Virus record (IMG/VR): IMGVR_UViG_2671181191_000004
Strand: one strand, 5' to 3'
DNA length: 64,000 nt
Source of the DNA: an uncultured virus (IMG/VR IMGVR_UViG_2671181191_000004)
Lineage: Duplodnaviria; Heunggongvirae; Uroviricota; Caudoviricetes
Shown in pieces: positions 1,494-30,650 of the stretch (positions within the stretch are counted from its first letter, which is position 1; each line of letters begins with the position of its first letter). The notes beneath the pieces are model-generated. The model saw nothing but the letters and a program-made list of their open reading frames with translations. It was not told the DNA's origin and did not search any database. Made by a program: the position numbers and the translations under genes.

Positions 1494-1934
1494 ATGAAAA
1501 AGGATCTTCAACTTCATAAAATAGATATTTCAACCAGTCTGCCTTTAAAATATGCAGATGAAGGCATCAGGGCTGGCTTTCCCTCTCCGGCACAAGATTA
1601 CCTTGAACAAGCGATAGATTTGAATAAGGAACTCATAAAGCATCCGGCCAGCACATTCTACGGTCGTGTTATTGGTGACTCGATGCGTGATGAAGGTATC
1701 GAAGAGGGAGACATTCTTATCATAGACAAGTCATTGGAACTATTAGATGATGATTTAGCTGTTTGCTTCATTGACGGTGAATTTACAGTGAAGCGTGTAC
1801 GCTTAGAAACAGATGCAGCTTGGTTAATTCCTTCCAATCCGGACTATCCGCTAATCAAAGTCACTAAAGAAAATGAATTTATCGTTTGGGGAATAGTCAC
1901 CTACACCATAAAAAAGAATCGGAGAAAAAGATAA
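1494..1934 (+). CDS. umuD: UmuD-like S24 autopeptidase (Pol V accessory)
   Basis: AGFPSPAQDY cleavage motif, GDSM catalytic Ser, FTVKR catalytic Lys. Confidence 0.93.
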   Translation: MKKDLQLHKIDISTSLPLKYADEGIRAGFPSPAQDYLEQAIDLNKELIKHPASTFYGRVIGDSMRDEGIEEGDILIIDKSLELLDDDLAVCFIDGEFTVKRVRLETDAAWLIPSNPDYPLIKVTKENEFIVWGIVTYTIKKNRRKR

Positions 1935-3184
1935 TGTTCGGCCTTGTAGACTGCAACAACTTCTATGCGAGTTGTGAAAGGGTATTCAACCCCTCTCTAA
2001 ACGGGAAACCTATCGTTGTATTATCAAATAATGATGGATGTGTAATTGCACGAAGTAATGAAGCTAAGCTTCTTGGTATTAAAATGGGAGTACCAGCCTA
2101 CCAAATAAAGGATTTAGTAAAGAAACATGATGTAGCTGTATTTTCATCTAACTATGTGCTATATGGCGACATGTCCGGCCGAGTGATGTCAATGTTAGCG
2201 GAGTTGGCACCCGAAATTGAAGTTTATTCCATTGACGAAGCATTTCTCAATCTGACAGGGATTAAAGACCTACAATCACTTGGAACAAACATTGTACGGA
2301 AAGTATCTCGTGGTACCGGCATACCCGTAAGTATCGGCATTGCACCAACTAAAACACTTGCAAAGATGGCAAACAAATTTGCAAAGAAGTACCCAGCATA
2401 TAATCGCCTCTGTATTATTGATACAGAAGAGAAACATGAGAAAGCATTAAAACTGTTTGAGATTGGCGAAGTATGGGGGATTGGCCACCGGCAAGCGGCA
2501 AAGTTGGAAAAACAAGGAGTAAAAACAGCTTTTGATTTTACACAACTTCCTGGTTCATGGGTTAGAAAGAATATGACCGTTGTCGGTGAACGTACCTGGA
2601 AGGAACTTCGCGGAATATCTTGTATTGACATGGAAACAGCACCTCCGGCTAAAAAACAAATATGTACCAGCCGTTCCTTTGGTAAAATGGTAGAAGATAT
2701 AGATACTATGTCTGAAGCAATCGCAACGCATGCATCTACATGTGCGAAGAAGCTCAGACAACAAAAGTCTTACGCCATGTCTTTGATGGTATTCATTCAT
2801 ACAAATAACTTCCGGGAAGATCTACCACAGTACTGGAAGAATACAATTGTTCAATTTCCCATCCCGACTTCAGACACTTTAGAAATCGTTGAATATGCCT
2901 TGGCCGGACTAAAAACCATATTTATGGAAGGATATCAATACAAAAAAGCTGGTGTCATTATCACAGAGATAACCACAAATGCACAGTTGGGCCTCTTTGA
3001 CTCTGTTGATCGAGATAAACGAGAAAGATTAATGCAGGTAGTAGACAAGATCAATGGCAATCATCAGCATCATGTCAAACTCGCAATACAAGGATCAGGA
3101 AGAGATTGGAAACTCAAACAAGAACAGCTTTCCAGACGTTATACAACAGATATAAATGAGGTTATAATCATTAAATGTAAGTAA
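1934..3184 (+). CDS. umuC: Y-family DNA polymerase UmuC-like
   Basis: DCNNFYASCE, SNNDGC and YSIDEAF motifs; C-terminal LSRRYTT; start MFGLVD at 1934. Confidence 0.93.
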   Translation: MFGLVDCNNFYASCERVFNPSLNGKPIVVLSNNDGCVIARSNEAKLLGIKMGVPAYQIKDLVKKHDVAVFSSNYVLYGDMSGRVMSMLAELAPEIEVYSIDEAFLNLTGIKDLQSLGTNIVRKVSRGTGIPVSIGIAPTKTLAKMANKFAKKYPAYNRLCIIDTEEKHEKALKLFEIGEVWGIGHRQAAKLEKQGVKTAFDFTQLPGSWVRKNMTVVGERTWKELRGISCIDMETAPPAKKQICTSRSFGKMVEDIDTMSEAIATHASTCAKKLRQQKSYAMSLMVFIHTNNFREDLPQYWKNTIVQFPIPTSDTLEIVEYALAGLKTIFMEGYQYKKAGVIITEITTNAQLGLFDSVDRDKRERLMQVVDKINGNHQHHVKLAIQGSGRDWKLKQEQLSRRYTTDINEVIIIKCK

Positions 3185-3186
3185 GT

Positions 3187-3885
3187 ATGTGTTTTCATAA
3201 CTCCATGAGTGCAAAGGCAATCAAATTGGCTGCTCGATATGGCCGAAAGTCGGATGTAATTGAGATATACCAAGACATTCTCAATGAGCAATATCATGTT
3301 AACGCTTTCAACTTTCCGAAATATCCCATTGTTACAACCTCGGATGAAGTTCAAGTATTCAATTGGGGGCTAATCCCTTTTTGGACGAAAGACGAAACTA
3401 ATGCTGATGAAATCCGAAGAATGACACTTAATGCCCGGGCAGATACTATTTTTGAAAAGCCCTCATTTCGGGAACCGATTATGAAGAAACGTTGTATCGT
3501 GCCATCTACCGGTTACTTTGAATGGCGACACGAAGGCAGCAAGAAAATCCCCTACTACATCTACCTAAAAGACGAACCAATATTCTCTATGGCCGGAATA
3601 TATGATACTTGGCTTGATAAAGAGACTGGAGAGGAACATACAACATTTTCCATCATAACCACTGAAACGAACCCTCTTACAAATTACATCCACAACACCA
3701 AGCACCGTATGCCGACAATCTTATCTCCTGAGGATGAAGAAAAATGGTTGAATCCAGACTTATCGAAAACAGAAATATCATCTTTATTGAAGCCCTATGA
3801 TGCAAAACTGATGGATGCCTATATTATAGAGAATGACTTTATAAAGAAAGCATCAACAGATCCATCAATTTTGCAGAGAGTATAA
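3187..3885 (+). CDS. SOS response-associated peptidase (SRAP/HMCES/YedK family)
   Basis: N-terminal MC; WGLIPFW, NARADT, GYFEW and HRMP motifs. Confidence 0.9.
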   Translation: MCFHNSMSAKAIKLAARYGRKSDVIEIYQDILNEQYHVNAFNFPKYPIVTTSDEVQVFNWGLIPFWTKDETNADEIRRMTLNARADTIFEKPSFREPIMKKRCIVPSTGYFEWRHEGSKKIPYYIYLKDEPIFSMAGIYDTWLDKETGEEHTTFSIITTETNPLTNYIHNTKHRMPTILSPEDEEKWLNPDLSKTEISSLLKPYDAKLMDAYIIENDFIKKASTDPSILQRV

Positions 3886-5346: not shown

Positions 5347-6066
5347 TTATTTAGGCAAGGAGCAGAATTCCAGTTCTTTCTCTAATGATATAAATTCGCT
5401 ATCCCACATTAGCTTACCCGTCAAGAAAGATTTATATTGTTCGTAAAGATGGTGTTTCAAAATAAATGTAGATACTGCTGCCGAATAAGCCATTTTCCTT
5501 GAACCTCTATGCATTACATCTTTGACTCTCTGCAAAAAATAAGCAATATCGAGATCTTTCCATGGTTCTATATCTTTCAATGTTTTACCAATTTCAGCTA
5601 ACAAGCGAACTCTTGGACTATTTAGATATACTTGATTGTTTAAGTCAAGTATATTTATTGTGTTACTCCCTTTGACATTTTTATAGCATAAGAAACCATT
5701 TTGAAAATACAAATATTCCTTAGGATTATCAAATAATGGATTAACTATTTCAACAGTATTGGGGTCTATATTGCTTTTGTGTCTATTGCAATGATTCAAA
5801 GATGGTAATAAGTTCCCCCACTCAACGACTTTTTTAGAATATGGTACTTTAGGATAAAAATGATCGATCTGCATATCCTTCCCTTCTTCTTTCAGCCGCA
5901 CTTCAGAATAAGCACATTTTCCATAAGCAATTTCAAATACAGCATCTTTAATGAACTTTTTCTGCCAAACAGGATCTGTCTTGTCATTTTCAAATTGTTC
6001 AATAAGCGCTGACTCCATTTGAGGTGTCAGCTCTCTAGGTTTATTAGATAGGATTAGTTTAATCAT
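5347..6066 (-). CDS. HNH endonuclease, Septu PtuB-like
   Basis: KCAYSE...IDHFYPK...WGNLL...CNRHK; overlaps the stop of the upstream ATPase. Confidence 0.75.
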   Translation of the reverse strand: MIKLILSNKPRELTPQMESALIEQFENDKTDPVWQKKFIKDAVFEIAYGKCAYSEVRLKEEGKDMQIDHFYPKVPYSKKVVEWGNLLPSLNHCNRHKSNIDPNTVEIVNPLFDNPKEYLYFQNGFLCYKNVKGSNTINILDLNNQVYLNSPRVRLLAEIGKTLKDIEPWKDLDIAYFLQRVKDVMHRGSRKMAYSAAVSTFILKHHLYEQYKSFLTGKLMWDSEFISLEKELEFCSLPK

Positions 6067-7468
6067 GTTCGTTGTCGCGAATACCTTCAATTTGCAAAGG
6101 AATTAATTCTCTATCAATGCTACTAGGATGCAATATATTACTTAATTCACTAAAAATATTTTTTGCTTGTCTTGCATCTCCTTTTTGCAAAGCATCTTGT
6201 AATTGATTTATCAACACCATATATTTATCTGAACGAACCTCATCGCCTAAATTCATAATTTCACGAAGTATCTCTTCAACCGTCCAACCTTGAAAAGAAG
6301 TCTCTGGATAATGTGAAATTTTTATTGTATCATTATCTTTAACTAAGGCATAGAGATTTATTTTCTCAATAGATTGAACCAATAAAGGGCTATGTGTAGT
6401 TACAATAAATTGTGTCATTGGAAACATCTTACAAAGTTCAGATAAAATACTCCTCTGCCATGTCGGATGAAGATGCATATCTATTTCATCTACTAAAAGA
6501 ATAGCAGGTTCGTGAAAAGGATTTTTGGAATTGGGATATCTATCAAACAATTTCTTACAAAAATCAAAAATCCAAGAAAATGTACACTGATATCCATACC
6601 CCAAATCACTCAATCTATATCTTCCATCTTCTGTTACAAAATATACAAAACTATTCTCATTATCATCAAAACCTATTTCGATATCCTTTACATTTGGGAA
6701 AAGAGATGAATGACGAATTAAATTACGTACTTTCAAATATCTCGCACTTGCACCAGGTCGCTTATGATGTTTTGCAGTATCTAATTGTAATATCCACGAT
6801 TCAATATCAATCAGTCTATTGTCATCATAAAATAAAGATTCGCTATTCAAGAGATTTTCTAATCTTTTAGAGCCGAATTTTGAGTGCCTATTAGTCCCAT
6901 AAGCATCAATCCTTACCCTGCTTATATCTTCTGTTGGATCAACATAATTTGTTTTTTGGGTATATCCATATTTAGTCGGGGAAATTGATTCATGAAGCTG
7001 AGAGTTACCAGGCATCGGAAATCGCGTGGTATATCTAATTATTTCTTCAAAAGTAGATTTATTGATATTATCTTGGCGCTTTTTAATTTTCAAAAAATCA
7101 CATTCAATATCATATTGAATTTCACAATCATATCTCTCAACAACTCTAGGCTTATACATAGGCTTCTTGCTTAAATCAGGAGAAAGCATTCTATCCCCTA
7201 ACAGAACAGCTATGTCAAGATATAAGCGTTCTACTTTTTCTGCTGAAGAATCTACATTCTTAACATCATCTAATACAGGCTCTAAATTGGCAATGGCCTT
7301 CAATAAATTGGTTTTTCCAGTACCATTATCCCCTAATATTACTGTACATTGAGATAACTTCTTCCCACCATCATTCTTACAAAAAAAGAATTTATTTTCG
7401 CCTTTAAAACACTTATAATTATTCAGTGTCAAAGAACGAATATAAACAGGTTGTTTTTCTGTTGACAT
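6059..7468 (-). CDS. ABC/AAA ATPase, Septu PtuA-like
   Basis: Walker A GDNGTGKT, signature LSDLGYG, Walker B LLVDEIDMHLHP, TTHSP; start MSTEKQ at 7468. Confidence 0.8.
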   Translation of the reverse strand: MSTEKQPVYIRSLTLNNYKCFKGENKFFFCKNDGGKKLSQCTVILGDNGTGKTNLLKAIANLEPVLDDVKNVDSSAEKVERLYLDIAVLLGDRMLSPDLSKKPMYKPRVVERYDCEIQYDIECDFLKIKKRQDNINKSTFEEIIRYTTRFPMPGNSQLHESISPTKYGYTQKTNYVDPTEDISRVRIDAYGTNRHSKFGSKRLENLLNSESLFYDDNRLIDIESWILQLDTAKHHKRPGASARYLKVRNLIRHSSLFPNVKDIEIGFDDNENSFVYFVTEDGRYRLSDLGYGYQCTFSWIFDFCKKLFDRYPNSKNPFHEPAILLVDEIDMHLHPTWQRSILSELCKMFPMTQFIVTTHSPLLVQSIEKINLYALVKDNDTIKISHYPETSFQGWTVEEILREIMNLGDEVRSDKYMVLINQLQDALQKGDARQAKNIFSELSNILHPSSIDRELIPLQIEGIRDNEHD

Positions 7469-7558
7469 AATACATTTCCTTATATTCTCTTCGCAAATAT
7501 AAGCCAAAATTGGAATAGACATTCTTTTTCCCATTCTTTTTTTATTAAAATCAAATAT

Positions 7559-8502: not shown

Positions 8503-8993
8503 TTAACTTCCTCCTTATCAATTTCGTTTTCAATTCTTTCAATCACTCCCTGGACGTGAGAGGGCATCGCACGTTTGAACTCAAACCTAATCAAGTGATA
8601 GATTATCCGGAATGCTTTGTTTTTGGGATACGCAACAATCAGATTTTTAAAAGCATTTTGCAGATACACGTATGAGAAGACATACGTAATAGTCTTTATC
8701 ACAATGAGGGAACTATCTCCATCCCCTATTGAATCCATGAAGACAAACACCACCTCGATAATAACCAGATATAAGAGCAGCTCTGCCAATGCATTTTTAA
8801 ACTTGCTCCATTTAAAGTTCTGGCACCGAACTATACTCACTCCATCAGCCCGCATGCCACACCAGATATTGAAGGCAAACATCACTGCCAAAGCTATTAA
8901 AAAGCCTTTGGTCGGTGTCAAGTACGCCAACAATGAGCTGAACAATGACACACATATCACTCTAATTTGATCTAACGTAAATAATCTCTCCAT
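8499..8993 (-). CDS. Putative holin
   Basis: Several TM segments, charged C-terminus, ATGA overlap with the endolysin. Confidence 0.75.
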   Translation of the reverse strand: MERLFTLDQIRVICVSLFSSLLAYLTPTKGFLIALAVMFAFNIWCGMRADGVSIVRCQNFKWSKFKNALAELLLYLVIIEVVFVFMDSIGDGDSSLIVIKTITYVFSYVYLQNAFKNLIVAYPKNKAFRIIYHLIRFEFKRAMPSHVQGVIERIENEIDKEEVK

Positions 8994-9159
8994 TTTGCAT
9001 ATATCTATTTTAATACTAATTTTGTAGGATCACAGTAGTTTTTAAACTACAAAATCCCGATCCAGCTTGTGAAAGTAGGACGGGATTTCTTAAAACAAAA
9101 AGCCCATCAACAACACCTAATACGGGCTGTCAATGGGCATAATCACATGCACAAAGGTA

Positions 9160-9780
9160 CTAATTATCTTCTAATTTACAAGCCTTTTCCTCCATTCTTA
9201 TAAGATGATTATTAAGGGTTACCAAGTGGCATTTAAGTTTGCGGCAGATAGCAGCCTTTGACTTTCCTTCAGCAAGCATCTTATCAATAAGTTCCGCTTT
9301 CTTATCAAGCTTATAGTGAGTGTTTTTTTCACCAGCTTGCCGGCCTAATTTTTTCCCTGAAGCTTTTCGCCATGCCAGTGCTTCTTTAGTTCGTTGGCTA
9401 ATTAGGTCGCGTTCGATCTGAGCTGACAGTCCGAAAGCAAAAGCGAGTACCTGACTGTTGATATTATTACCAAGCTCATACTTCTCTTTTACAGTCAACA
9501 CAAAGGTTTCCTTCGTCATGCAAAGATTGAGCATCGACATAATACTCATCAAGTTTCTACCCAAGCGGCTGATTTCAGAGATAACCAAAGTATCCCCTTT
9601 CTTCATTTTCCTAAGTAGTGGACCAAGACGACGTTCTTTCGCAGACTTGGTTCCCGTCACCTGTTCTGATACCCATAAATCTATTTTTAAACCTTTCGAT
9701 TCTGCGAATTTTTCAATCTCGAAACGCTGATTCTCTTTAATCTGTTTATCGGTTGAGATTCGAATGTATGCGTAAATCAT
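9160..9780 (-). CDS. Serine recombinase / DNA invertase (Mpi/Pin-like)
   Basis: MIYAYIRISTDKQ catalytic Ser, SRLGR and ERDLISQRT motifs, C-terminal HTH. Confidence 0.92.
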   Translation of the reverse strand: MIYAYIRISTDKQIKENQRFEIEKFAESKGLKIDLWVSEQVTGTKSAKERRLGPLLRKMKKGDTLVISEISRLGRNLMSIMSMLNLCMTKETFVLTVKEKYELGNNINSQVLAFAFGLSAQIERDLISQRTKEALAWRKASGKKLGRQAGEKNTHYKLDKKAELIDKMLAEGKSKAAICRKLKCHLVTLNNHLIRMEEKACKLEDN

Positions 9781-9834
9781 TTTTGCCTGTGAAGATAGTG
9801 ATATCATACAGGGTAAACAAACAATGAATCAAAC

Positions 9835-9858
9835 GTCCGTTAAAAGTGAATAGGTATG
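9835..9858 (+). repeat. Shufflon recombination site 1
   Basis: GTCCGTTAAAAGTGAATAGGTATG; ends in the cassette start codon. Confidence 0.9.
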
Positions 9859-10348
9859 AAAGAGAACGAGATAGCCAGCGGTGTTGCAATAAAGGTGCGA
9901 GGCTTAGATGCAAACGGCAATAGTATTGTGACAAGTCCTCAGCAAATTGTAGACAATACCAGTTGTCTGCAACTGAAGCAGCTATATGGTACTTATGCTG
10001 AGTCATATTACTGCAAGATCGTAACAATGACCCTATCTGGCAGTACAGAAGGCAACCTTGATAATATTGTTTTGGAAATAATCGGAGGTAACGCATACAC
10101 TGTGCCTAATAGTTTATTATACTTATCGCTGGTATGCCATAGAGAGACGGTAAAGGCCAGCAAGAATAGCATAATAGGTACTTTGAGTATTGGTTATGTC
10201 AAAAACGATACTTCGATAGATATATGGGTAAAAACAGCTTCATATTAATTCAATTTATGTCTCTATTCTTGGCAGACAAGATCGAAATGCCCTTATAAAA
10301 AACGTATATCAAAAGGATGTGCCAGAAGGATATATAGAGATTAATTAA
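9856..10348 (+). CDS. Shufflon cassette 1 (MKENE type), putative tail adhesin subunit; one extra base near 10245
   Basis: ORF 9856-10248 continues in another frame to ...VPEGYIEIN*, resembling the cassette 2 end VPEGLIKV. Confidence 0.7.
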
Positions 10349-10368
10349 TAGGGGCATAATGCCCCTAT
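10348..10368. repeat. Palindrome between convergent cassettes 1 and 2
   Basis: ATAGGGGCAT-A-ATGCCCCTAT; identical copy at 12108-12128. Confidence 0.85.
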
Positions 10369-10882
10369 ACTTTAATCAATCCCTCAGGGACTTCATTATT
10401 CGTTTCCAACTTAATTATTCCCCCATGATTAGCTATAACAGATAAATTGAGCGACCCACCGGAACTCGATTCATATCCCCATACTTCCCGTGTCTCATTT
10501 ACGTCTCTGTAATACAACCTAAAAGTTGTATTAGCCCTTGTACATTGATTAATTCCGGTAAGTAACCCTTTCGACAAGATATCATTCCAAGAGGTAACTT
10601 TCCCAGAGGACTACCGCTCGCTATAAGAAACTGGCAATTAGCATAATAAATAGTTAAGTTACATAAGTGAACATATTTTTCTGCTGAATAATGTTGCATA
10701 CTTCGTTTAAACAGGTCAACGGATGCCAATCCCTTTTGTTCCTTTGTAGCTTCAGACATTACCAACCTAATTACTTCAGCAAGGTCAGCTCTATTTATAC
10801 GTACTGGATTACCATTAGGATCTATTAAGGCGATATATTCACTATTGATACTATTTACCTGTGTACTTTCATTTAATTTCAT
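10365..10882 (-). CDS. Shufflon cassette 2 (KLNE type); frameshift near 10535
   Basis: ORFs 10499-10882 and 10365-10577 join by adding one G to a G run; N-terminus homologous to cassettes 4 and 5. Confidence 0.7.
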
Positions 10883-10902
10883 ACCATTCAGTTTTAACGG
10901 AC
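10880..10902 (-). repeat. Shufflon recombination site 2
   Basis: Reverse complement GTCCGTTAAAACTGAATGGTATG. Confidence 0.9.
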
Positions 10903-10944
10903 AAAAGATATGAAGTAGTCAAAGGCAAGCGTGAATCTCTCTCT

Positions 10945-11448
10945 TTAGAATGTAAATTCTTTGACAATATATCCAGCGTCCGGTTCTTCTGAAACTTCTA
11001 CCGGTGTCTGAAAAGTAAATCCAATGTTATTGCTGTAAGCAAAATTTATATCATTCCTTCCATTGGCACTGATATAAATATCAACCATTCCAGTTTCTGT
11101 AGTCGAGCCTATATATAATAATCGTACTTTACTAATACATTTACCGGACACTCCTAATTGAATAACGTTCTGTAGATTACTGTAGCCATCAAAAGCAATG
11201 TAGAATAATTGGGAACAAGGAGCATTATTCACATATAGACTCCCAGCATTAAGCAATACCGAACTTGCCATATGACATCTACGACTTATAGCTACTCTAT
11301 ACCATTTACCATTAAGAGCATCTACTATAGAGAATGTACCGCATCCTGACTTTGCAATTTCTTTAGGGGTGGTCACTATACTGTTGCCATTAGCGTCTAT
11401 CCCTCGCACCTTGGTAACTGTACCATTGTTCAATTCATTCTCTTTCAT
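10945..11448 (-). CDS. Shufflon cassette 3 (MKENE type)
   Basis: MKENEL...KVRGIDANGNSIVTTP, homologous to the cassette 1 N-terminus; ATG lies in site 3. Confidence 0.8.
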   Translation of the reverse strand: MKENELNNGTVTKVRGIDANGNSIVTTPKEIAKSGCGTFSIVDALNGKWYRVAISRRCHMASSVLLNAGSLYVNNAPCSQLFYIAFDGYSNLQNVIQLGVSGKCISKVRLLYIGSTTETGMVDIYISANGRNDINFAYSNNIGFTFQTPVEVSEEPDAGYIVKEFTF

Positions 11449-11468
11449 ACCATTCAGTTTTAACGGAC
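11446..11468 (-). repeat. Shufflon recombination site 3
   Basis: Reverse complement GTCCGTTAAAACTGAATGGTATG. Confidence 0.9.
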
Positions 11469-11539
11469 GTATTTTTATCACTGAATTTTACCCTCAAAAC
11501 TGTCGGCATAATTCTGAGTAAAAATACATGAGTTTGTAT

Positions 11540-11563
11540 GTCCGTTAAAAGTGAATAGGTATG
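11540..11563 (+). repeat. Shufflon recombination site 4
   Basis: GTCCGTTAAAAGTGAATAGGTATG. Confidence 0.9.
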
Positions 11564-12103
11564 GGAAAATTAAACGAAACCACCCAAGTGAACACTATAG
11601 GCAGCGAGTTTGTGCTACTTACAGATAGTAATGGCCTGCCAGTACGGATTAGCAAGAATAATCTTGCAGAAGTCATCCGCAGCGTGATGAACGAGGCCAA
11701 CATCGTAGATAAAGGATTGATGCCTGCCGGAATAGTTGGCAGCATTAATAAAGGAGCAAGTACACTATTATGTGAAACTCAAAGTATAACCGTTACTGCA
11801 TCAATGCTTTTATCTATATCCGCTACTACAACAGGGATACCTAATCTCTATTTTATATCAATGGCACGTGCGGCAAGTAATACAGGTAATCCAATCATAA
11901 AAGTAAAAGTGTTAGCCGGTACCTATAATATGAAAATTATAGGAAAAACAGATGCAGATGGTAAGTGTAAAGTATATGCTGAACGAACACAATATACCCC
12001 TGTCATTGATGTGATTGCAATGAGCACATTTGGTATCACCATGAAAATGGAATCTGCCGATAATTCAGAATTTGAGGGTGGTTTTGAAGCTACGTTAGAG
12101 TAA
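11561..12103 (+). CDS. Shufflon cassette 4 (KLNE type)
   Basis: MGKLNE...LLTDSNGLPVRISKNNLAE shared with cassette 5; intact 180 aa. Confidence 0.85.
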   Translation: MGKLNETTQVNTIGSEFVLLTDSNGLPVRISKNNLAEVIRSVMNEANIVDKGLMPAGIVGSINKGASTLLCETQSITVTASMLLSISATTTGIPNLYFISMARAASNTGNPIIKVKVLAGTYNMKIIGKTDADGKCKVYAERTQYTPVIDVIAMSTFGITMKMESADNSEFEGGFEATLE

Positions 12104-12106
12104 TAG

Positions 12107-12129
12107 TATAGGGGCATAATGCCCCTATA
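12107..12129. repeat. Palindrome between convergent cassettes 4 and 5
   Basis: TATAGGGGCAT-A-ATGCCCCTATA. Confidence 0.85.
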
Positions 12130-12130
12130 A

Positions 12131-12708
12131 TTATGTAACGTCAATATACGTTGCAGCATCAACTTCATCCTGATTGGCAGCAGTAAAAGAAATACCATCC
12201 GAGGAAGATTGGAAAGTATTTAGAATTTTAGCATACACGCCAACGGTATACTGTATTCGTTCCAATATAACTTTAAAAGCTCCAGTATTTTCGTCAGCCC
12301 ATAACTTAAATTTGGGGACATTAGAGGAAGAAGACCGCCTATACGGTTTAAAATTATTGTAGGTTTTTTCATACTCTCAGAGGCCCTATTAATGGACATT
12401 AGATAATGACTCATAACACCTCCACCAGATGCCGCTACGGATATTAAGAGGCTTGTGGATTTTGGATTTGTAGAAATCTCAGGTTCGAATATTATCAATG
12501 AATTGGAAGCACTCAATCTCTTTTCCATTCTCACTTCATTGGCGGGCTTTAGTCCGTTTTTCTCTGTTGTTGCTTCACTCATTACATTACGAACGGCTTC
12601 GGCAAGATTATTCTTGCTGATCCGTACTGGTAGCCCATTACTATCTGTAAGTAGCACATATTCACTATTAATGCTATTCACGATAGCGGCTTCGCTTAAT
12701 TTTCCCAT
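12131..12708 (-). CDS. Shufflon cassette 5 (KLNE type), next to the tail operon; frameshift near 12335
   Basis: Adding one base gives ...FKVILERIQYT...YIDVT*, homologous to cassette 4 CKVYAERTQYT. Confidence 0.75.
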
Positions 12709-12729
12709 ACCTATTCAGTTTTAACGGAC
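12706..12729 (-). repeat. Shufflon recombination site 5 (tail-operon-proximal)
   Basis: Reverse complement GTCCGTTAAAACTGAATAGGTATG. Confidence 0.9.
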
Positions 12730-12843
12730 GTCTAAATTATATCAAAAAACGCCCAAATTCAACATTTAATTTTTAGTCTCGTTTTGTTTAATTTATTTCC
12801 CCGCAAATTCACTCCCTTGTGGGCAAGGATAACTGAGGACTCC

Positions 12844-14163
12844 CTAAAGGTTCCCAAGTTTAGTATATAGCAATATCATTCCATTAAATGTAGGGTTGGC
12901 ATTTGAACTTGTGATCGTCAAATAGGTTTTTCCTGACTCAAAGCTGAAACTACCTATACTTATCGGGTTACCACTCGTCCGGCCATCCAAATGTACACTG
13001 GAATGAGTTATCAAACAATCCGTTTCATTGCTACCAATGATACCGGTCATGTCTATTTTGTAAGTAGTAACACTACCACTTACAGATGACGTGAAAGTGA
13101 GTTCATCCTGGTAATATTTACTTCGGAACATAAAAGCTCCTATGCCACTATAAAATTGGCAAAAGATAAATCCAAATACCGGATCATAAGGTGTCATATC
13201 GACCAGTAGCCAACGATAGTTGATGACAGTACCACTATCGCTATCATAGAGTGGCACGAGGCGGAATTTGGCAGAAGTCTTAGTGGCAAGAGAAATGTAA
13301 TTATTGAAACTCACGCCATTATATATAGGAGAAGATACGAAGTTATCAACTCCAGCAAGTGCCGATGTCCGCCCTTTCACAACGAGCCTATTCTGAGTAC
13401 CATCTTCCAAGGAATCACCTTGATACAATGAATAAGGAAGATAATCGATAGTAACCTCTCGTCCTGATTCATCGCTTGATCCTACCAACTCAACATTACA
13501 TTTATTACCGGTAATAATCAGGCGATTGATATTGTCACCAGGAAGGATACGATAGCTCTGTGAATTACCGGACTTTATTTCTGTTGGATATATGACTGTA
13601 CCTCTAATCTTAATATCACCTTTCGGTTCAAAGATGATACTTCCTCTCTTGCCTAAGAACTGTCTTCCGGTTTTGAGGTTTACACAATAGTTAGGGACGA
13701 AATCAATAGAACCAAATTCACTCAGTGGATCATTAGGGTTAAAGTTTTTATAATCCAATGTCGGATTGCCATTTGCATCTACCCCATGCTGACTAAACAT
13801 AAAATCATCATAGAAAATAGCGCTTGCGAAATTAGCAAATTGAGCCATGAGTATCTCAACATAAAGAGCCTTATAACTTTCAAAAGGTATCCAAGTGGCT
13901 TTGGTGCCATTGACTGCATAATCCTTTTGAGGATTATTAATATTCGACGGAACACCATGACCGATCCAGGTGGTAATCTGATTCATCACATAATAGATAC
14001 CATTATATAGTACATAAGGAGCGACCATATCCGTACATATATAATCCGTATGTAGGTTGTATTCGCCTGCCGGATAAGGAAGCTGGCCACGAGAACCTTT
14101 TGCACCATCCTCAGGAGCCGCCGTAACATTAAAGGTTGATGCTACTATCTGTTTCTTTGCCAT
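12844..14163 (-). CDS. Putative tail fibre / receptor-binding protein
   Basis: 439 aa, Gly/Ser/Thr-rich beta-type composition, distal end of the tail operon. Confidence 0.6.
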   Translation of the reverse strand: MAKKQIVASTFNVTAAPEDGAKGSRGQLPYPAGEYNLHTDYICTDMVAPYVLYNGIYYVMNQITTWIGHGVPSNINNPQKDYAVNGTKATWIPFESYKALYVEILMAQFANFASAIFYDDFMFSQHGVDANGNPTLDYKNFNPNDPLSEFGSIDFVPNYCVNLKTGRQFLGKRGSIIFEPKGDIKIRGTVIYPTEIKSGNSQSYRILPGDNINRLIITGNKCNVELVGSSDESGREVTIDYLPYSLYQGDSLEDGTQNRLVVKGRTSALAGVDNFVSSPIYNGVSFNNYISLATKTSAKFRLVPLYDSDSGTVINYRWLLVDMTPYDPVFGFIFCQFYSGIGAFMFRSKYYQDELTFTSSVSGSVTTYKIDMTGIIGSNETDCLITHSSVHLDGRTSGNPISIGSFSFESGKTYLTITSSNANPTFNGMILLYTKLGNL

Positions 14164-14168
14164 AAGAT

Positions 14169-15202
14169 TTAAGATTTAGTTCCTTGTACATAGCCGGTAA
14201 TATTACCCCTGCACCCTTCACATCGGTATAGGTAAGCTTACATCCGGTTGTGGTAGGCGCATTGGCAGGAGTAAAAGCGGTACCGTCAGCTTTCGTAAAA
14301 GTAGTCTTGAATGTAAAGCCGGTTACTTCTTCGCCTGTACCTGTCTTCTTCACCTTATATGTTGCAGTTACCTCACTGGTAGCACCGCTGCTGGTAAGAA
14401 ACGTAGGCCCACTGAAATTAACAGCCAAGAATAACGGATCAGTTTCATCACTCACTTCACCGATTGCAATAGCAACCACCTCACCACTGATAATAAATTC
14501 AGCTCTTACACTTAGCTTAGAATCAATGTCATCAGCCACTAATGAAACACTGTTAGCTGTTGACCATGCTGTGGTGGAAGGCATCTTGTACCATTTCAGG
14601 GAGTAGTTGCTTTGGGGTACCAGTGAGCCACCTTTGTAGAGTTCCTGAGTCACTTTAACGGTAGCTGTATCGCTGTCGATAATACCACCATCGGAAGGAT
14701 AAAGGAAACCGTAATAGGCAGAATTACTAAATTCTGAGATGGCAAGAGGTATCTCAGAAGTGTAGCCAAGATTATGCCCGGAAGCCTCAATCTCACCATC
14801 CATGCGGATAGTATCTGCATCCATGTTAGAAGCGGAAGCAAGATTTCCTACGATCTTCAGAGCCGGTACATTCACGGAGCCATTATTGTAAGTAGTGGTT
14901 TGCATCTTACCGGCTACGGCAGCCGGAGCGGTAGCTAACCCGGAAGCGTTGAATGTTATAAGTGTATTGTTATAATACCATTTCTCGGAACCAGAAACAA
15001 TCGACTTGATCACATTCTCATTGCCTGAGCGCATGACCGGATAGATGATAGGTTGATTAGCCGCTACACTCCAGTCCGGTACGCACTTACCCGTATCCTT
15101 CTGATACATCTGTACAAGCGGCTTCGTAGATCGAATATTCCCCTGTGCACTATCACCATCAATAATCATACCGATATAAAAAGAACCCGCAACATCACTC
15201 AT
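14169..15202 (-). CDS. Tail-associated structural protein; probable 1-nt frameshift near 14210
   Basis: Start MSDVAGS; one added G restores GAGGNITGYVQGTKS* ending just before the next gene. Confidence 0.65.
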
Positions 15203-15561: not shown

Positions 15562-16716
15562 TTAGCCTCTGGCTATTATTACTTCATTGGCGCCTGTACG
15601 GATGGGATCACCACTCTTGGTAGTAAGCACCGTATAAGGGCCTATCTCGTAGACTTCAGGATAAACAGACATCTGCAGGCCACCACTCAGGCGTAAGCTG
15701 CCGGCTGTAACCGATATCGAACTACCGTGTCCGATTTCCGTAGCAGTCGCACCCGCAGCAGACGACTTCTTAAACCACTTCACAAAAAAGTATTTATTGA
15801 TCTGGTCCGTTGTCAGCTCCTCTTTATTCGTCAGTATCTTCACATAAAAAGTCATGTTGGCCATTCCCTGACGAATGGTATTGCCATTCGGACTATAGAC
15901 AAATGCCTTAATCGGAGGAATCTTATAAACTATGGCCGTCTCAGCCATCAAAGTATCATCCGTAGGAGCTGACGGCTTGGTTCCGGTATAATAAGCCGCG
16001 CGGCAGCGGATAACGCTCATATATGTATTGTCAGCATCAATACGCAAAGTATTGGTACCCTGACCGGATACATATTCAATATTCAGGTCAGAAGAGTTGA
16101 TAAGGGTTTCCTCTCCGTTCTCGACTTTGTACCACCAATATGCTACATTGGCATCCGCTACCGTCTCGCTGCCCATTTTCAATACAGCAGTGATATCTAT
16201 GTATTGGTTATCCTTCAAAGGATTATAGGTTATCTTGGCAGGTTGGTTAACACTCAATGAAAGCTGGTCATCACTCTTCTGTATAGAGTTCAGAGTGAAT
16301 GTATCGGTATATACCAACGTGTTTTTATTTCTGGAATCCACATAGGTAGCCCGGCAAAGAATCTGCACAGGAGTAGTTGGCGAAACATTCTTCTTCACAA
16401 GCAATGTTCCGTCAGCATTCAGTGTATAATTGCTATTCTCCGAGGTAATCTGAGTGCTCTCACTGTTTTCATACCAGGTGACAGTCAGCTGACTACTTTT
16501 ATCCCCATTACTGATAATCTTATCCGGATCGACAATACTGAGGAATGCCTTTAGCTTCATCGGGGTAATGGTTCGATTCGGGATGAAGGTGTTAGCATTC
16601 GTGTAATAAAACTGTGTCTTACTACCTCCACCATCTATTACAATACCAAAACTCGCCTTCAGAGGCGTATAACTGGTTCTGACCGGCTGCGGTTGAACCG
16701 CGGTTTTAATTTTCAT
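15562..16716 (-). CDS. Tail-associated structural protein (Ig-like)
   Basis: 384 aa, Thr/Ser-rich, YWWYK and VKWFK Ig-like strands. Confidence 0.65.
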   Translation of the reverse strand: MKIKTAVQPQPVRTSYTPLKASFGIVIDGGGSKTQFYYTNANTFIPNRTITPMKLKAFLSIVDPDKIISNGDKSSQLTVTWYENSESTQITSENSNYTLNADGTLLVKKNVSPTTPVQILCRATYVDSRNKNTLVYTDTFTLNSIQKSDDQLSLSVNQPAKITYNPLKDNQYIDITAVLKMGSETVADANVAYWWYKVENGEETLINSSDLNIEYVSGQGTNTLRIDADNTYMSVIRCRAAYYTGTKPSAPTDDTLMAETAIVYKIPPIKAFVYSPNGNTIRQGMANMTFYVKILTNKEELTTDQINKYFFVKWFKKSSAAGATATEIGHGSSISVTAGSLRLSGGLQMSVYPEVYEIGPYTVLTTKSGDPIRTGANEVIIARG

Positions 16717-19600
16717 ACAATTATGCTATTTTCGATATTAATACTCTCAATACCGTCACGGACGTATGCCGTACAGGTGAATTTCACTTTTCTTGTAGCA
16801 CCCCAATTGGAAGGCATGTCCTCGTTTGTCAGGTGCAGTACCCGCCCGTTATTGGCGTGAGCGACCGACCAGGCATTATCTTCCGTCACCTGACCACTAT
16901 CACGAGTCCATGACCAGTCACCGGGCAACACATCCGCAGAGATATCATTATAGCCCCAATAGACAATAGGGGTAAATTCCGCATTGACCTTACCGGCAAA
17001 GAAGTTATAACCGTTACTGGATGAGAATTCAAGGGTTAGTTCTGAGTTACCTTCAATCTGCGCCCAGTCGGTTGCATTCCATTTGGGTTCTTGAAGTGTG
17101 CCGGTAGACAGACACATCCATTTACAGCCGACATGATAGACCGCATCATAAACTGTGTCTGTAGACTGATAGGGATTGTTCACAGCATCCTCAGATGACC
17201 ACGGACCCCGATTATTCTCAGAACGAACTGGTGTACCCTGATAGTCTATACGCAATAAGTCCTGTATAGCGATACCACGACAATAGATATAGCTATGTCG
17301 GTAGTTTATAGGCAGGTTGTCAAATAGTGACAACTGCTTTAACTTGCCTATAATGATGGCATAGTTATTCTCTTCCAGTATAGGTTTCGTTACTCCATCG
17401 AGCATACAGATACACTTCTCACGGGAAGATAGGTACCAATATGCCTGACGATCTTCGTTCACCGGATTACCACGATGAGAAAGTATCATTAGCGGTTCCG
17501 GTGGATAGTTTTTGCCTCCTGGAACTTCATCGTCCGGATACATGACCGCAGTGATGGTATTAGATACTGTATTCACATTCAGCACACGGAGCCATGAAGT
17601 GTAATAATCACCAGTACCTGAAGCAAGATTATTCACCATGCCGTAAACAACATCATTCTCGTCCAAGGCTGTGAAATCATTCTCCCAACGTTTACGAAGC
17701 GGTAAACGATAGGTACCATCTTCTAATAGTTCGACACTCTCAATCGTGCCAGATTCGGAAAATGAATAATCACTTTCCATAGCTGAAAGGCGATTAAAAA
17801 TTATCTCCAAAACGGTCAGCGATGACCGCAACTCCATGCGGTCAGCCTGTATCCTCCCTTTATTATCCGCGATTATGCCCTTGCCCGCAGTTAGTGAGTC
17901 TATGGCTTCGCCAACCTCTAGTCCTCCTAATAACCTCAATAGGTAATTAGTGAAATCTAGTTTATCTTTACGAAGAAACATTGATAACGAACGCAATGCC
18001 GAGAACACATTGCTGTCAGTTGCAGGAGTGGAGTCATTCCTTCTTATCACATATACACCACTACCGCTTCCACCTGTATAAACCTGTCCTTTGAGAGTGA
18101 GATTTTCCACCTTGTCCTCTAGTTCCCCGATGCGGGAATAGGCAGCAGTTTCCCCGACAGTATATACGGGGGAATCATAAGGCTTATCAAGGTTGAATTC
18201 GAACCCGATAACCCTCGACAGCCTTCCGTTTTCGAAATAGGCTTTGTTTATGAGGTTCACCCTTTGACCGATACCGTAGAGATTATGCATTCCATCCTCG
18301 CTGTATGCGTTATCGGACATCATCGTGCAGTTGTAGGTGTTCGGGTCTATCTTAGATTTGGCAATGTACTTTTCAGCCTCTTCCTTCAGTTCCCGTTCGG
18401 CAGCGGATACAAGTCCTAATTCTGTTATTTTGGTTGAATCCCAACCTGACAAAACGTAGGTATCGCCGTCTTCGGGGATGAGCACCTCATCGGGTAACGG
18501 GCGACCGTAATCCTCGTTTCGGACAATTTCCCAAAGCTGTTCATCCTTACCGTCGGGATCAAAGGTTACAGCGAACACCATACCGTTCAATTTACCCGAC
18601 TGGAAGATGATTGTCAATTCCTCACCGGGGAGGATATAATCTTTGGAGAAAGTTATCCCTGTGTCCTTGAAACGGTAAGCATCCCACTTCTTTTCGGTAG
18701 TCGTTCCATCAGCATTCTCAATGGTTTCGGTATATTCCTTGGTAGTGATGTCCGACATAGTTCCAACTCTCCGGGATAGACTTCATCGAAGATAACCACT
18801 TGCTCGATAGCTTCCTCTGTACTCATTTTCGGATAAGCATCTATGTACGGAGTTCCTTCGGGTAGCATCAATCTTTTTTGCACCACACCATTTACCACCA
18901 CCGCTTCGTCAACGGGACGGTAGTTGGCAGGAATGTTCCTTGTCGAGCCGAAAGTATAGATACGGGTGGCATAGGTTGACTGGGATTCGGAGCGTGACAT
19001 TTCCCCCACGTTCTTAGCGATTTCCATATTCACGTAGTCGCCAAACTCGCATTTACCGAAGTGGATAATATTGTCTGTCATCCAGCACTCGCAATCCCAT
19101 TTCTTCGCCATTTCAAAACAGGCATCTAAGATATTGGTGTTATCATAAGTCATTAACAGAGACTTGTTCTCGACCGTACTGTCAATGGAAAAATCAAAAT
19201 CCTGTCCTTTGTAAGTATAACCAAGAGCTTTCAAGTTTCTCAGGACTATACTTGCTTGTACGTTGAGTGGAGCAGTCAGACTCCAGGACGCTTCCTGCCC
19301 AGATGTCTCCGGGGTATATTTGAAGATTTTATTTTTCCATTTCCAGTAGTGAGCATCAAGTCTTAGTTCATAATCATAGCCTGCGTTATCGGTGTTGAAG
19401 GTAGGACTCTGCAAATCGCACACTTCAAATAGTCCAAAGTCGCATTCAACGTAAGTTCCGAGCTTGAAGTATATGGGATTCTCCAAAGAGAATTTCAAAA
19501 GTATGTAATCCTCTTTTTGGAGCGTAAGCTTCCGCTTGCAACCTTCGTTGGGAGGGGTTGAAAGAAGAATGGCACTGGATATGTCTTTGATATCTATCAT
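16713..19600 (-). CDS. Large tail tip / baseplate hub protein, split by a 1-nt frameshift near 18772
   Basis: ORFs 18653-19600 and 16713-18758 fuse (DEVYPRRVGTMSDITT) if CCC is CCCC. Confidence 0.7.
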
Positions 19601-27917: not shown

Positions 27918-28205
27918 ATGGATTTTAGAACAAGGATAAAAGAACTTTGCCAAGAACGAGGCATTACCCAAAAGGAACTGGCTGAAAAAATGGGTATTTC
28001 AGATATTAGTCTAAATAAGACTTTACGAGGAGAATATCCACAGTTGCAAACATTAGAAAAAATAGCAAACACTTTGAATGTTCCTATTGCAGAGCTATTC
28101 GAGAAGCCAAACACCAATGATATTATTGGCTTCGTAAAGGTCGGCGATACCGTACATGAGGTGAAGTCTGCGGAGGATATTAAGAAATTAGCAGAGAATT
28201 TATAA
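27918..28205 (+). CDS. XRE-family HTH regulator
   Basis: RIKELCQERGITQKELAEKMG...TLEKIANTLNV. Confidence 0.88.
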   Translation: MDFRTRIKELCQERGITQKELAEKMGISDISLNKTLRGEYPQLQTLEKIANTLNVPIAELFEKPNTNDIIGFVKVGDTVHEVKSAEDIKKLAENL

Positions 28206-29713
28206 TGACTCAAAAAAATAAAATAATAGATACTATTTGCAGTAGAACTACTTCATTTATTATCAATACTTCCAAGAGTGAAAGAAAAAAATACGGACAG
28301 TTTTTTACTAGTAAGGAAATTGCTATATACATGGCAAGCCTATTTGATTTACAAGAAAATAAGTGTGAATTTAAAATATTAGACGCGGGTGCAGGGTCTG
28401 GAATCCTGTCTGCTGCCATATTGGATAAACTACGTCCAATGAAACATATATCAAAGTTATATTTAACTTGTTATGAAAACGATGAAAATATACTTCCTCT
28501 TTTAAAAAGTAATCTTGAATATATCAAAACTCAAATGCCTAATAGATTAGAATATGAAATTATCGAGGATAATTATATTCTTTCTCAAAATTTTGAACGT
28601 AAAGGGACTAATGATACTAATTTTTTATATGATATAATAATAGGAAATCCACCTTATCTAAAAATTGCTAAGGATGCCCCAGAAGCTTTAGCTATGCCTT
28701 CTGTCTGCTATGGTGCCCCCAACCTATATTTTTTATTTATGGCTATGGGAGTATATAATTTAAAACCAGGATGTGAAATGATATATATCATACCCAGATC
28801 ATGGACATCAGGCGCTTATTTTCAGAAATTTAGAGATTATCTATTTGAAAATTGTGTCCTATTACAAATTCACTTATTTGAAAGTCGAAATAAAGTTTTT
28901 GATAACGAATCTATTTTGCAAGAAACAATTATCGTAAAAATAAAAAAAGCACAAACTCCTTCAAAAAAAATCTTGATCACATCTAGCTTATCTAGTGATT
29001 TTTCTAATATTACAAAATTAGAAGTTCCGTATAATATCGTTGTCATGCCTTCTAATGGCTATGTATATTTACCTACTAATGAAAAAGAGAAAGATTCTTT
29101 ATTAATAATCAATCGTTTGCCAAAGACTTTGCCCGCATTAGGTTTGAAAATGAAAACCGGTATTATCGTAGACTTTCGAACTAGAAATGTTTTGAGAAAT
29201 AAAAAAGAAAGTTTGAGTTATCCATTATTTTATTCTCAACATATACAAGGGGGAAAAGTTATATTTCCAATAGGAAAAAATGGTGAGTATATTAAAACAG
29301 ATAAGAAAGGATATTTACAGAAAAATAAAAACTATCTTTTTGTGAAAAGATTCACTTCGAAAGAAGAAAATAGACGTTTACAATGTGGTATATACCTATC
29401 AAATGAATACTCAGAATATGAATATATAAGTACTCAGAATAAGATTAACTTTATTGAGGGAGTACAATTATTATCAGAAGAAGCTATATATGGCTTATTT
29501 GTATTATTTAATTCATCAATATATGATATGTATTATCGTATATTAAATGGTTCAACTCAAGTAAATTCAACAGAAGTAAATGTAATACCTATACCAACGA
29601 TGAATGTAATAGAGACCATGGGAAAGGAGTTAAAACTATCTAATGATCTTTCAGAAAGCAATTGTAATAATATACTAAATAAATACATAAATGGACAAAC
29701 TGAAAACGATTAA
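28205..29713 (+). CDS. Type II N6-adenine DNA methyltransferase (Eco57I/BsuBI/PstI-like)
   Basis: GQFFT, motif I LDAGAGSG, motif IV GNPPY. Confidence 0.9.
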   Translation: MTQKNKIIDTICSRTTSFIINTSKSERKKYGQFFTSKEIAIYMASLFDLQENKCEFKILDAGAGSGILSAAILDKLRPMKHISKLYLTCYENDENILPLLKSNLEYIKTQMPNRLEYEIIEDNYILSQNFERKGTNDTNFLYDIIIGNPPYLKIAKDAPEALAMPSVCYGAPNLYFLFMAMGVYNLKPGCEMIYIIPRSWTSGAYFQKFRDYLFENCVLLQIHLFESRNKVFDNESILQETIIVKIKKAQTPSKKILITSSLSSDFSNITKLEVPYNIVVMPSNGYVYLPTNEKEKDSLLIINRLPKTLPALGLKMKTGIIVDFRTRNVLRNKKESLSYPLFYSQHIQGGKVIFPIGKNGEYIKTDKKGYLQKNKNYLFVKRFTSKEENRRLQCGIYLSNEYSEYEYISTQNKINFIEGVQLLSEEAIYGLFVLFNSSIYDMYYRILNGSTQVNSTEVNVIPIPTMNVIETMGKELKLSNDLSESNCNNILNKYINGQTEND

Positions 29714-30650
29714 AATCCTACTTGAAAAGTTAGGGATGCCTAAGGAGCAACAGTCCGATCTATGCTGTTACGCTATATTAGCAATGGCTAATATAGGCCC
29801 TAGTGACAAATGGAATAAAGCAACAAATGAGTGGACCCGTATCCATGATATAATTGGCTTTATAAAAGAAAAGTATATGATCACATATGCAGAAAATAGC
29901 AGAGAGACATTCCGCAAACAAGCAATTCATCATTTTCGCACTGCTGCTTTAATAGAAGATAATGGAAGAGCAACCAATAGCCCTAATTTCCGTTATCGGC
30001 TCACCAAAGAAGTTTTGGATGTCATAAAAGATCTCCCTAATGAAAAATTAATAAATTCATTTTTGTCAAAGCATGAAAAATTAATAGATACTTATGCGTC
30101 TAAAAAGGAAATGACAAAAATGCCTGTAAAAATAAACGGTAAGAATTTTACTTTCTCAACAGGTAGTCATAATGAACTTCAAAAGGCAATAATAGAAGAA
30201 TTTGCACCACGTTTTGCTCCTAATTCTGAATGTTTGTATGTTGGAGATACGATTGAAAAAGATTTAGTAAAAGACACAAAAAAGTTAAAAGAGCTAGGCT
30301 TTGAAATTACTCTACATGACAAAATGCCAGATGTAGTACTATATAATAAAGAGAAAAATTGGCTCTATTTTATAGAATCCGTAACTTCCGTTGGTCCAAT
30401 GGATCCCAAAAGGATTATAGAAATTAATGCAATGACACAAAACGTTACTTGTGGAAAAATATTCGTCACTGCTTTTTTAGATTTTAAGACATTTAAGAGA
30501 TTCTCAGAAAAGTTAGCATGGGAGACAGAAGTTTGGTTAGCTGATATGCCTGACCATATGATACATCTTAATGGAGACAAATTCTTAGGTCCAAGGAACA
30601 ATGATTATCAAGAGAAAATCTATACCAACAAAATAAAAAAGAGGATTTAA
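29691..30650 (+). CDS. BsuBI/PstI-family type II restriction endonuclease; may extend to 30787 if an A run is one base short
   Basis: YAENSRETFRKQ, HDKMPDVV, FIESVTSVGP and AWETEVW motifs. Confidence 0.88.
   Translation: MDKLKTIKILLEKLGMPKEQQSDLCCYAILAMANIGPSDKWNKATNEWTRIHDIIGFIKEKYMITYAENSRETFRKQAIHHFRTAALIEDNGRATNSPNFRYRLTKEVLDVIKDLPNEKLINSFLSKHEKLIDTYASKKEMTKMPVKINGKNFTFSTGSHNELQKAIIEEFAPRFAPNSECLYVGDTIEKDLVKDTKKLKELGFEITLHDKMPDVVLYNKEKNWLYFIESVTSVGPMDPKRIIEINAMTQNVTCGKIFVTAFLDFKTFKRFSEKLAWETEVWLADMPDHMIHLNGDKFLGPRNNDYQEKIYTNKIKKRI

Follow-up and report, generated by a model that had tools for sequence, protein, structure and literature searches.

An active multi-cassette inversion system behind the tail operon of a temperate phage, with whole genes as its cassettes

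Active inversion of whole genes

The stretch of DNA analysed here (the window; 64,000 nucleotides) comes from an uncultured virus of the Caudoviricetes, IMG/VR record IMGVR_UViG_2671181191_000004. At positions 9160–12729 it carries five small genes, called cassettes C1 to C5 here, which are interspersed with five copies of a short recombination site and adjoined by the gene for a serine invertase. Comparison with related loci and with public sequencing runs identifies this array as a real, active multi-cassette inversion system. The phage is temperate, its genes lie mostly on the minus strand, and the array is located between the last tail gene and the lysis genes. The best explanation of the whole, and one that we consider probable, is that the phage's own Mpi-family invertase shuffles complete, separate tip genes, which are read from a slot directly behind the tail operon.

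Rearrangement is seen in two close relatives. Locus L112, with 99.0–99.9% identity to the window in the aligned blocks, carries two inversions, one between sites 1 and 2 (C1–C2) and one between sites 3 and 4 (the spacer); in L207 every segment is 99.4–100% identical, yet C1 occupies the slot. Public runs that contain the stretch are mouse-gut or gut metagenomes, together with one coded organism. Contigs of four such runs break at the sites, the loose ends being the starts or flanks of other cassettes. In the isolate run X7 the slot is occupied by C3 in one contig (contig 30, depth 12.8), and another has the C5 junction of the window (contig 29, depth 6.8); run X4 contains a site 2–site 4 inversion within one contig, and run X1 has five loose ends, each the start of another cassette. 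The run evidence consists of contigs, not raw or long reads, and arrangement frequencies are not readable from it. Sites stand in both orientations in 43 of 70 loci and, with five sites and inversion between opposite ones, 64 arrangements are computed to be reachable within four steps. The suggestion of a first-pass annotation of the window, that the array undergoes multi-site inversion, is therefore borne out, relatives and runs (L112, L207 and the contigs of X7, X4 and X1) giving several arrangements and not one invariant order.

The same annotation held that whole genes are swapped, start codon included, with no constant N-terminus fused on to them, and this too stands. Of 242 cassette starts with enough upstream sequence, 237 have a site 19–26 nt before the ATG, and the remaining five have the site or a variant of it on inspection. 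Over the 237 sites the spacing from site to ATG falls in all three phases (93, 78 and 66). Each of the 42 loci that include the slot flank has a further in-frame stop after the upstream gene and before the cassette, with gap phases of 19, 15 and 8; in the window the upstream gene stops at 12844, and the in-frame TGA noticed earlier within site 5 is present, together with a TAA. The gene upstream of the slot is interchangeable among relatives (a tail protein, a 147-residue HExxH protein, or genes of 105 or more than 1000 residues). Moreover, 148 of the best 150 library matches to the N-terminal module of the cassettes are proteins of at most 250 residues, with the module N-terminal. Taken together, the three spacing phases, the stops, the interchangeable upstream gene and the shortness of these proteins exclude, as far as sequence can show, a constant N-terminus fused to the cassette. 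The system does not cross over within a tail-fibre gene so as to combine its constant part with a variable one.

Two alternatives bear directly on these observations. In the first, read-through, frameshifting or a defective upstream gene would attach each cassette, as a C-terminal half, to a constant part, the arrangement known from Min, Gin, Cin, Rin and BV01. The phage shufflons of the compared papers, in their available text, all work by fusion (PMC6109161, PMC13596623), no stop interrupts the frame across the site in 120 of 237 cases, and sequencing indels do occur elsewhere in the window. Against these points stand the phases, the stops and the N-terminal position of the module in short proteins, and no indel is found within 12730–14163 in the four runs; we regard fusion as extremely improbable. 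There is equally little chance that the differing arrangements are assembly artefacts at short repeats. Such artefacts could be read from L007, L017 and L024, in which the slot flank stands at both array ends (either an assembly artefact or recombination between two phage copies), from the 23 of 59 truncated contigs that stop near a site, and from the reliance on contigs. The junctions, however, link the left flank of one site to another cassette across ∼11 shared bases in contigs of four studies, at each of the four sites exchanged between L112 and the window the base at site position 12 goes with the cassette, and the invertase adjoins the array in 19 of 20 full loci.

Recombination sites, crossover point and invertase

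All five annotated sites are present, at 9835–9851 (plus strand; site 1, the invertase-side end), 10886–10902 (minus; site 2, whose left arm is the end of C3), 11452–11468 (minus; site 3), 11540–11556 (plus; site 4) and 12713–12729 (minus; site 5, which forms the slot). The cassette ATG follows 3–4 nt past the end of each site, again as annotated. Searched with up to three mismatches, the site pattern finds the same five and no others in the 64 kb, where the chance mean is 0.36 and none of 100 shuffles reaches five. A site scan of one genome per species returned 63 stretches, every one a lone match. Compared with ARACGTTCGTN, the published repeat of Mpi, sites 1 and 5 agree at 9 of 10 positions, the mismatch being the second base of the core proposed below, and sites 2, 3 and 4 differ from it at 5, 2 and 4 of 10 positions, respectively.

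The site had been described as an imperfect dyad around a central AA, with breakpoints expected at that AA (site positions 8–9). A weak dyad is present there (5–7 of 13 pairs per site), but comparison across the family puts the crossover at another point. At position 5, 55 of 277 pairs of sites with a common left flank differ, compared with 2 of 116 pairs with a common cassette; the corresponding counts at position 7, a weaker witness, are 30 of 277 and 9 of 116. The pairs are non-independent in that related phages are counted repeatedly. In one group of close relatives an identical left flank has G or C at position 5, depending on the cassette attached. Since position 5 travels with the cassette, exchange lies within positions 1–4, and the AA core is rejected on this co-segregation. 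The base preceding position 1, by comparison of the window with L112, remains with the left flank.

When 258 distinct sites are scanned for dyads, the maximum is at positions 2–3, with 5.55 pairs compared with 3.54 for shuffled arms (4.16 and 3.69 at the AA), the innermost pair being fixed by the search pattern, as are positions 1, 3 and 4. Position 2 varies within only 1 of 59 loci but does vary between loci (T in 38, C in 198), and so behaves like a core base; positions 5 and 7 vary within 15 and 10 of the 59. These comparisons place strand exchange in G(TC)C, with the core TC at positions 2–3 (9836–9837 in site 1), 20–21 nt before the cassette ATG. A G-rich half-site ∼24 nt before the core (12730–12756, minus strand, and in other left flanks) forms a dyad with the core, both arms being changed in distant loci, and is possibly a second binding site for the invertase. 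An inverted degenerate site is found near 11490, within the spacer.

The invertase gene occupies 9160–9807 on the minus strand, with a likely start at ATG 9780 that gives a protein of 206 residues. As annotated, it is a serine invertase adjoining the sites: its domain is of the serine resolvase type (PF00239, E 2e-28) and not a tyrosine recombinase, its PHROG match (phrog_125) is DNA invertase, and it scores 287.4 bits against NF009949, the Mpi family, above the curated cut-off of 272. Its position beside the array points to it as the acting enzyme. Two invertase genes stand in tandem beside the array in two other loci (L181:5370-6594 and L183:5370-6609), and phage B124-14 has a 52%-identical invertase among its replication genes, with no cassette annotated nearby.

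Cassette proteins and their expression

As written in the window, the open reading frames (ORFs) of C1 to C5 encode 130, 127, 167, 180 and 162 residues. Extra bases behind 10245, 10534, 11343 and 12334 are, however, present at full depth in contigs of all four runs and in L112 as well, which identifies the four short cassettes as products of sequencing errors; a reading of them as pseudogenes is rejected on the same grounds. The annotated range of ∼160–190 residues does not fit the ORFs of the window (127–180 residues) but does fit the corrected lengths. C1 (9856–10348, plus strand; the window lacks two bases behind 10245) then has 164 residues, C2 (10365–10882, minus; one base behind 10534) 172, C3 (10945–11448, minus; three bases near 11343) 168, C4 (11561–12103, plus) 180, and C5 (12131–12708, minus; one base behind 12334), which occupies the slot in the window, 192.

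Two N-terminal classes with divergent C-termini had been recognised, and the identities agree. Over residues 1–45, C2, C4 and C5 (the KL.E class) are 60–76% identical to one another and C1 and C3 (the MKENE class) 49%, with 16–27% between the classes; the C-terminal parts are only 14–25% identical. Profile comparison relates C3 to C1 (94.9) and finds no similarity between C4 and C3 (probability 0.1), despite the common structural neighbours of their models. Grouped by C-terminal part, the 257 ORFs that follow sites in 80 invertase loci form 59 clusters, of which 58 were kept, one cluster of two ORFs being a spurious antisense ORF that was removed before the family searches. A profile of the N-terminal module, used without the site pattern, finds 246 cassette starts in 70 of 82 loci and matches 738 clusters at 50% identity. 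A third, shorter module, which lacks the β-hairpin and starts almost at the helix, is seen in cassettes of L126, L127, L131, L138 and L146; it is excluded from the profile (A2), making these module counts lower bounds. On such counts the family is widespread in Bacteroidales prophages (70 of 82 loci, 58 tip clusters).

The module itself has no convincing sequence match in the PDB (best E 0.012, unrelated) and none in Pfam, and its atlas neighbours with the Pfam labels DUF685, Phage_fiber_rpt, PTR and Mtd_N, at 0.76–0.83, are leads only. Neither C4 nor one Parabacteroides-type cassette has a match among 50,697 GenBank phages. Arrays of two cassettes are found in L113, L118, L124, L137 and L139, compared with three to seven in their relatives, and may reflect deletion between direct sites or collapsed assemblies.

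Structural models were made for C4 (pLDDT 81.5) and for the intact L112 copy of C3 (pLDDT 84.2). In both, a β-sandwich resembling tailspike tips comes after a short module composed of strands and a helix, with a linker between the two in C4. Among solved structures, both models are closest to the C-terminal domains of WceF and of tailspikes from Acinetobacter and Klebsiella. C4 superimposes on the WceF C-domain with a VIA Z of 10.4 (root-mean-square deviation, rmsd, 3.2; 117 residues aligned) and on the Acinetobacter tailspike with 8.7 (rmsd 2.5, 97 aligned), and C3 matches solved C-terminal domains with 8.5 (rmsd 3.4, 122 aligned) and 8.2 (rmsd 2.7, 107 aligned). Foldseek searches of BFVD, a set of predicted viral structures, give many tail-fibre and tailspike matches for both models. 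Among the 58 cluster representatives, four match tail-fibre PHROGs at E≤1e-3, and the divergent tips include pyocin-knob-like and Lcl_C-like ones. The folds thus fit the small receptor-binding subunit that had been proposed, and receptor binding by the cassette proteins is likely on these models.

Expression may be governed by the position of hairpins. Strong hairpins lie between the convergent cassettes C1 and C2 (10348–10371, a candidate two-way terminator; z −4.5 and −5.8, equalled in 0 of 200 shuffles on either strand) and between C4 and C5 (12105–12128; z −3.5 and −4.1), and none follows C3 before site 2 (z +2.1). In the relatives, hairpins of −10 kcal/mol or stronger occur at 33 of 33 convergent junctions compared with 9 of 90 tandem ones, these counts being made without a shuffle control over junctions that differ in length. 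Since hairpins mark convergent and seldom tandem junctions, co-oriented cassettes up to the first hairpin are probably expressed as a run; L146 and similar relatives have five co-oriented cassettes. The phase-variable choice proposed earlier is thereby refined, being probably not of one cassette from five but of such a run. The arms of both hairpins resemble the first bases of the site variant of distant loci, as if derived from fused sites.

Two non-coding segments complete the array. The spacer at 11469–11539 is 71 bp long and consists of two back-to-back left flanks; ten distinct spacers have lengths of 70–71 bp. Before the slot lies a conserved element of ∼60 bp (12730–12790, minus strand), a candidate promoter or accessory recombination site, in the latter case perhaps with a role like that of a Fis-type enhancer. 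Its 28 distinct copies share an invariant ACAAA and TGT..AAT, and in the window it is unique, scoring 55 where the next best segment scores −6.5. The slot flank folds no better than shuffles (z +0.6), no Rfam family matches within 8900–14300, and scans for sigma-70 promoters and terminators are at chance level (19 compared with 19.7, and 4 compared with 3.8).

Proposed mechanism, alternatives and known systems

We propose that the Mpi-family invertase of a Bacteroides prophage inverts the DNA between any two opposite sites, and that exchange in G(TC)C moves each cassette as a complete gene together with its ribosome-binding region. Cassettes facing away from the tail operon would be read from that operon, or from the element before site 5, as far as the first hairpin, the others remaining silent. 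The predicted output is a single cassette in 48 of the computed arrangements and C3 plus a second cassette in 16. The products would be small, separate tail-tip proteins in which the common module of ∼45 residues may oligomerise or attach to the tail, while the variable tip domain, its fold seen in the C3 and C4 models, may bind a surface glycan or protein. A population of lysogens would then release phages that differ in their tips and so hedge against phase variation in Bacteroides capsules.

Several points weigh against this proposal. None of the five cassettes of the window matches a Pfam, PHROG, NCBIfam or PADLOC family at E≤0.001, and the tip fold comes from models of two of the five, C3 and C4. 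The top structural match, WceF, is a bacterial enzyme, and the same sandwich is found in a baseplate chain (9f4a_LA, Z 7.2–7.4) and in the fibre connector gp9 of phage T4 (Foldseek E 0.07), so that the fold alone does not show receptor binding. The 439-residue protein encoded upstream of the slot has a variable C-terminus of its own and could be the main adhesin. The available part of one report describes a 2-kb tail-fibre inversion in a B. uniformis phage seemingly without a change in host range (PMC9727126). The five sites of the window by themselves fail to separate the two dyad models (31 compared with 28 of 65 pairs), and the hairpin counts carry the reservations already given. No exact Bacteroides −7 box precedes any site or lies in the spacer, and the hairpins have no clear U-tracts and were not listed by the terminator scan; the rule for expression is thus one that we infer.

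Other functions for a genuine shufflon have to be weighed against the tail-tip proposal. The cassettes might be phase-variable proteins of the lysogen (for superinfection exclusion, receptor masking or as surface lectins) expressed from the slot element independently of the tail operon. That element persists while the upstream gene changes and has a single copy in the window, which would be compatible with a dedicated promoter, and in B. intestinalis, according to the available text of PMC8375218, transcription begins inside the proximal Mpi-like repeat. The modelled folds resemble those of tailspike and fibre tips, however, tail-fibre PHROGs are matched by four of the 58 clusters, the cassettes stand behind tail genes in 20 of 20 loci, and no signal peptide or hydrophobic helix is evident in their translations; we judge a role in the lysogen to be quite unlikely. 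Alternatively, they might be structural or accessory virion proteins (head or collar fibres, or decorations for reversible adsorption or mucus binding), with the 439-residue protein as the primary receptor-binding protein. The sandwich of the T4 gp9-type connector, the variable C-terminus of the 439-residue protein among relatives and the probable co-expression of tandem cassettes, which would suit auxiliary fibres, are in keeping with this, whereas 58 divergent tip clusters on one N-terminal module form the pattern expected of receptor-driven diversification. An accessory role seems unlikely to us.

A wider version of the tail-tip proposal, which we consider rather unlikely, is that the prophages of Bacteroides and Parabacteroides type share one library of whole-gene tips (58 clusters, 80 loci) that snap on by one N-terminal module, that the position of one hairpin decides which tips, and how many, are displayed by a virion, and that flipping is coupled to the Mpi of the host. 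The phage invertase and its sites are close to those of host Mpi and differ in a core base, which makes cross-flipping possible: host Mpi may flip phage cassettes, or the phage invertase may flip host capsule promoters. If true, receptor switching by the phage would be tied to coat switching by its host.

The surroundings of the array are those of a tailed phage, the window containing genes for terminase, portal, major head protein, tape measure, distal tail and tail proteins, with lysis genes afterwards. The host genus is probably Bacteroides, a placement based on the species names of two cassette homologues (Bacteroides sp. MSB163 and B. cellulosilyticus). The last gene of the tail operon (12844–14163, minus strand; 439 residues) is not fused to a cassette. 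In relatives (L192–L201; 267–439 residues) some 170–270 of its N-terminal residues are kept and the C-terminal parts are unrelated, so that its C-terminus appears as a second, non-invertible layer of tip variation. The protein has no sequence match in the PDB, and its atlas neighbours at ≥0.86 are all unnamed. Further upstream, a tail protein of 384 residues (15562–16716, minus; phrog_3267) ends in a hairpin-like motif, a candidate docking point, whose pattern is retained in homologues at 27–31% identity; cassette modules lie downstream of this protein in all 20 loci with full downstream sequence. In a distant group of loci (L145–L187), a protein of 147–151 residues with a HExxH motif and a hydrophobic stretch, which has no NCBIfam match, replaces the tail gene directly before the slot element.

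Elsewhere in the window, a Septu-type defence pair (a PtuA-like ATPase and a PtuB-like nuclease; PADLOC E 6e-141 and 1.5e-73) lies at 5347–7534 on the minus strand, immediately past the lysis genes. A DNA polymerase gene (phrog_1268) and a partner gene at 1886–3885 (plus) follow the integrase at the left end, and a transposase at 35585–36817 (plus) stands within the structural region. A base behind 14205 is missing from the window in comparison with all four runs and resembles a sequencing error, as does the frameshift that divides 16713–19600 into ORFs of 315 and 681 residues, a single gene of 962 residues in L192. The methyltransferase/restriction gene at 28205–30650 may be split in the same way.

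The capsules of gut Bacteroidales are switched by DNA inversion, a challenge for temperate phages that have to go on finding hosts, and this locus offers a possible countermeasure. The combination of site, N-terminal module and Mpi-type invertase provides a candidate function and a detection rule for many hypothetical proteins, including whole-gene cassettes that are missed by searches based on gene–pseudogene pairs, and accounts for the frequent breaking of assemblies of these prophages at the end of the tail operon. The cassettes also offer a ready-made set of small proteins as candidate binders of surface glycans in Bacteroides.

Comparisons with known systems point to the host enzyme as a relative. 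The master invertase Mpi of Bacteroides fragilis acts on ARACGTTCGTN repeats, as given in the available text of PMC8375218 and PMC12632263, and the window invertase falls within its family, with sites 1 and 5 one mismatch away from that repeat over 10 nt. Mpi is chromosomal and flips short promoter segments at capsule loci in trans, whereas in the present case a prophage encodes the enzyme in cis and structural genes are moved; the 71-bp spacer also inverts (in L112) but contains no exact −7 box, and the principal substrates are genes. Judged by enzyme family and by site, host Mpi appears to be a closer model than hix/gix.

Separate small receptor-binding proteins on a phage tail have a precedent in Mtd of the Bordetella phage BPP-1, which is diversified by a diversity-generating retroelement (DGR). 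A likeness to that system is seen in one related cassette cluster that matches Lcl_C (E 2.4e-4, below the family cut-off), but variation here comes from a gene library and inversion; RVT_1 is absent from five of five phage records (two of them at least 90% complete), and a crude pattern for a reverse-transcriptase motif finds none in 79 loci. In phage Mu, the G segment also carries whole U and U′ genes, although the fibre itself is still a fusion.

Min of p15B, Gin of Mu and Cin of P1 resemble the present system in having a serine invertase adjoining an array of alternative tail-fibre or receptor-binding cassettes, short crossover sites and many arrangements, but they attach a variable 3′ portion to a 5′ portion that stays constant, as described in the available text of PMC6109161, whereas here the cassettes are whole genes, with no frame through the site and an enzyme of the Mpi family. 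Rin of Bifidobacterium prophages is also a gut prophage system, with small receptor-binding cassettes each behind a short site and a flanking recombinase; according to the same text (PMC6109161), however, that recombinase is a tyrosine recombinase and each cassette encodes a C-terminal part that becomes fused to the constant N-terminal gene. The BV01-like shufflon of Phocaeicola vulgatus likewise shows active multi-cassette inversion in a temperate Bacteroidaceae phage, and has been proposed to counter capsule phase variation; it differs, in the available text of PMC13596623, in using another 10-bp motif and in overlapping the distal end of one fibre gene, which yields six isoforms of that protein. 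No description of such a whole-gene tip shufflon was found in searches confined to an open-access library, supplements apart; the locus tables of PMC9881135 could include a member of the family. The phage switches compared here rewrite only the end of one fibre gene; in the window and its relatives, complete small genes are shuffled instead.

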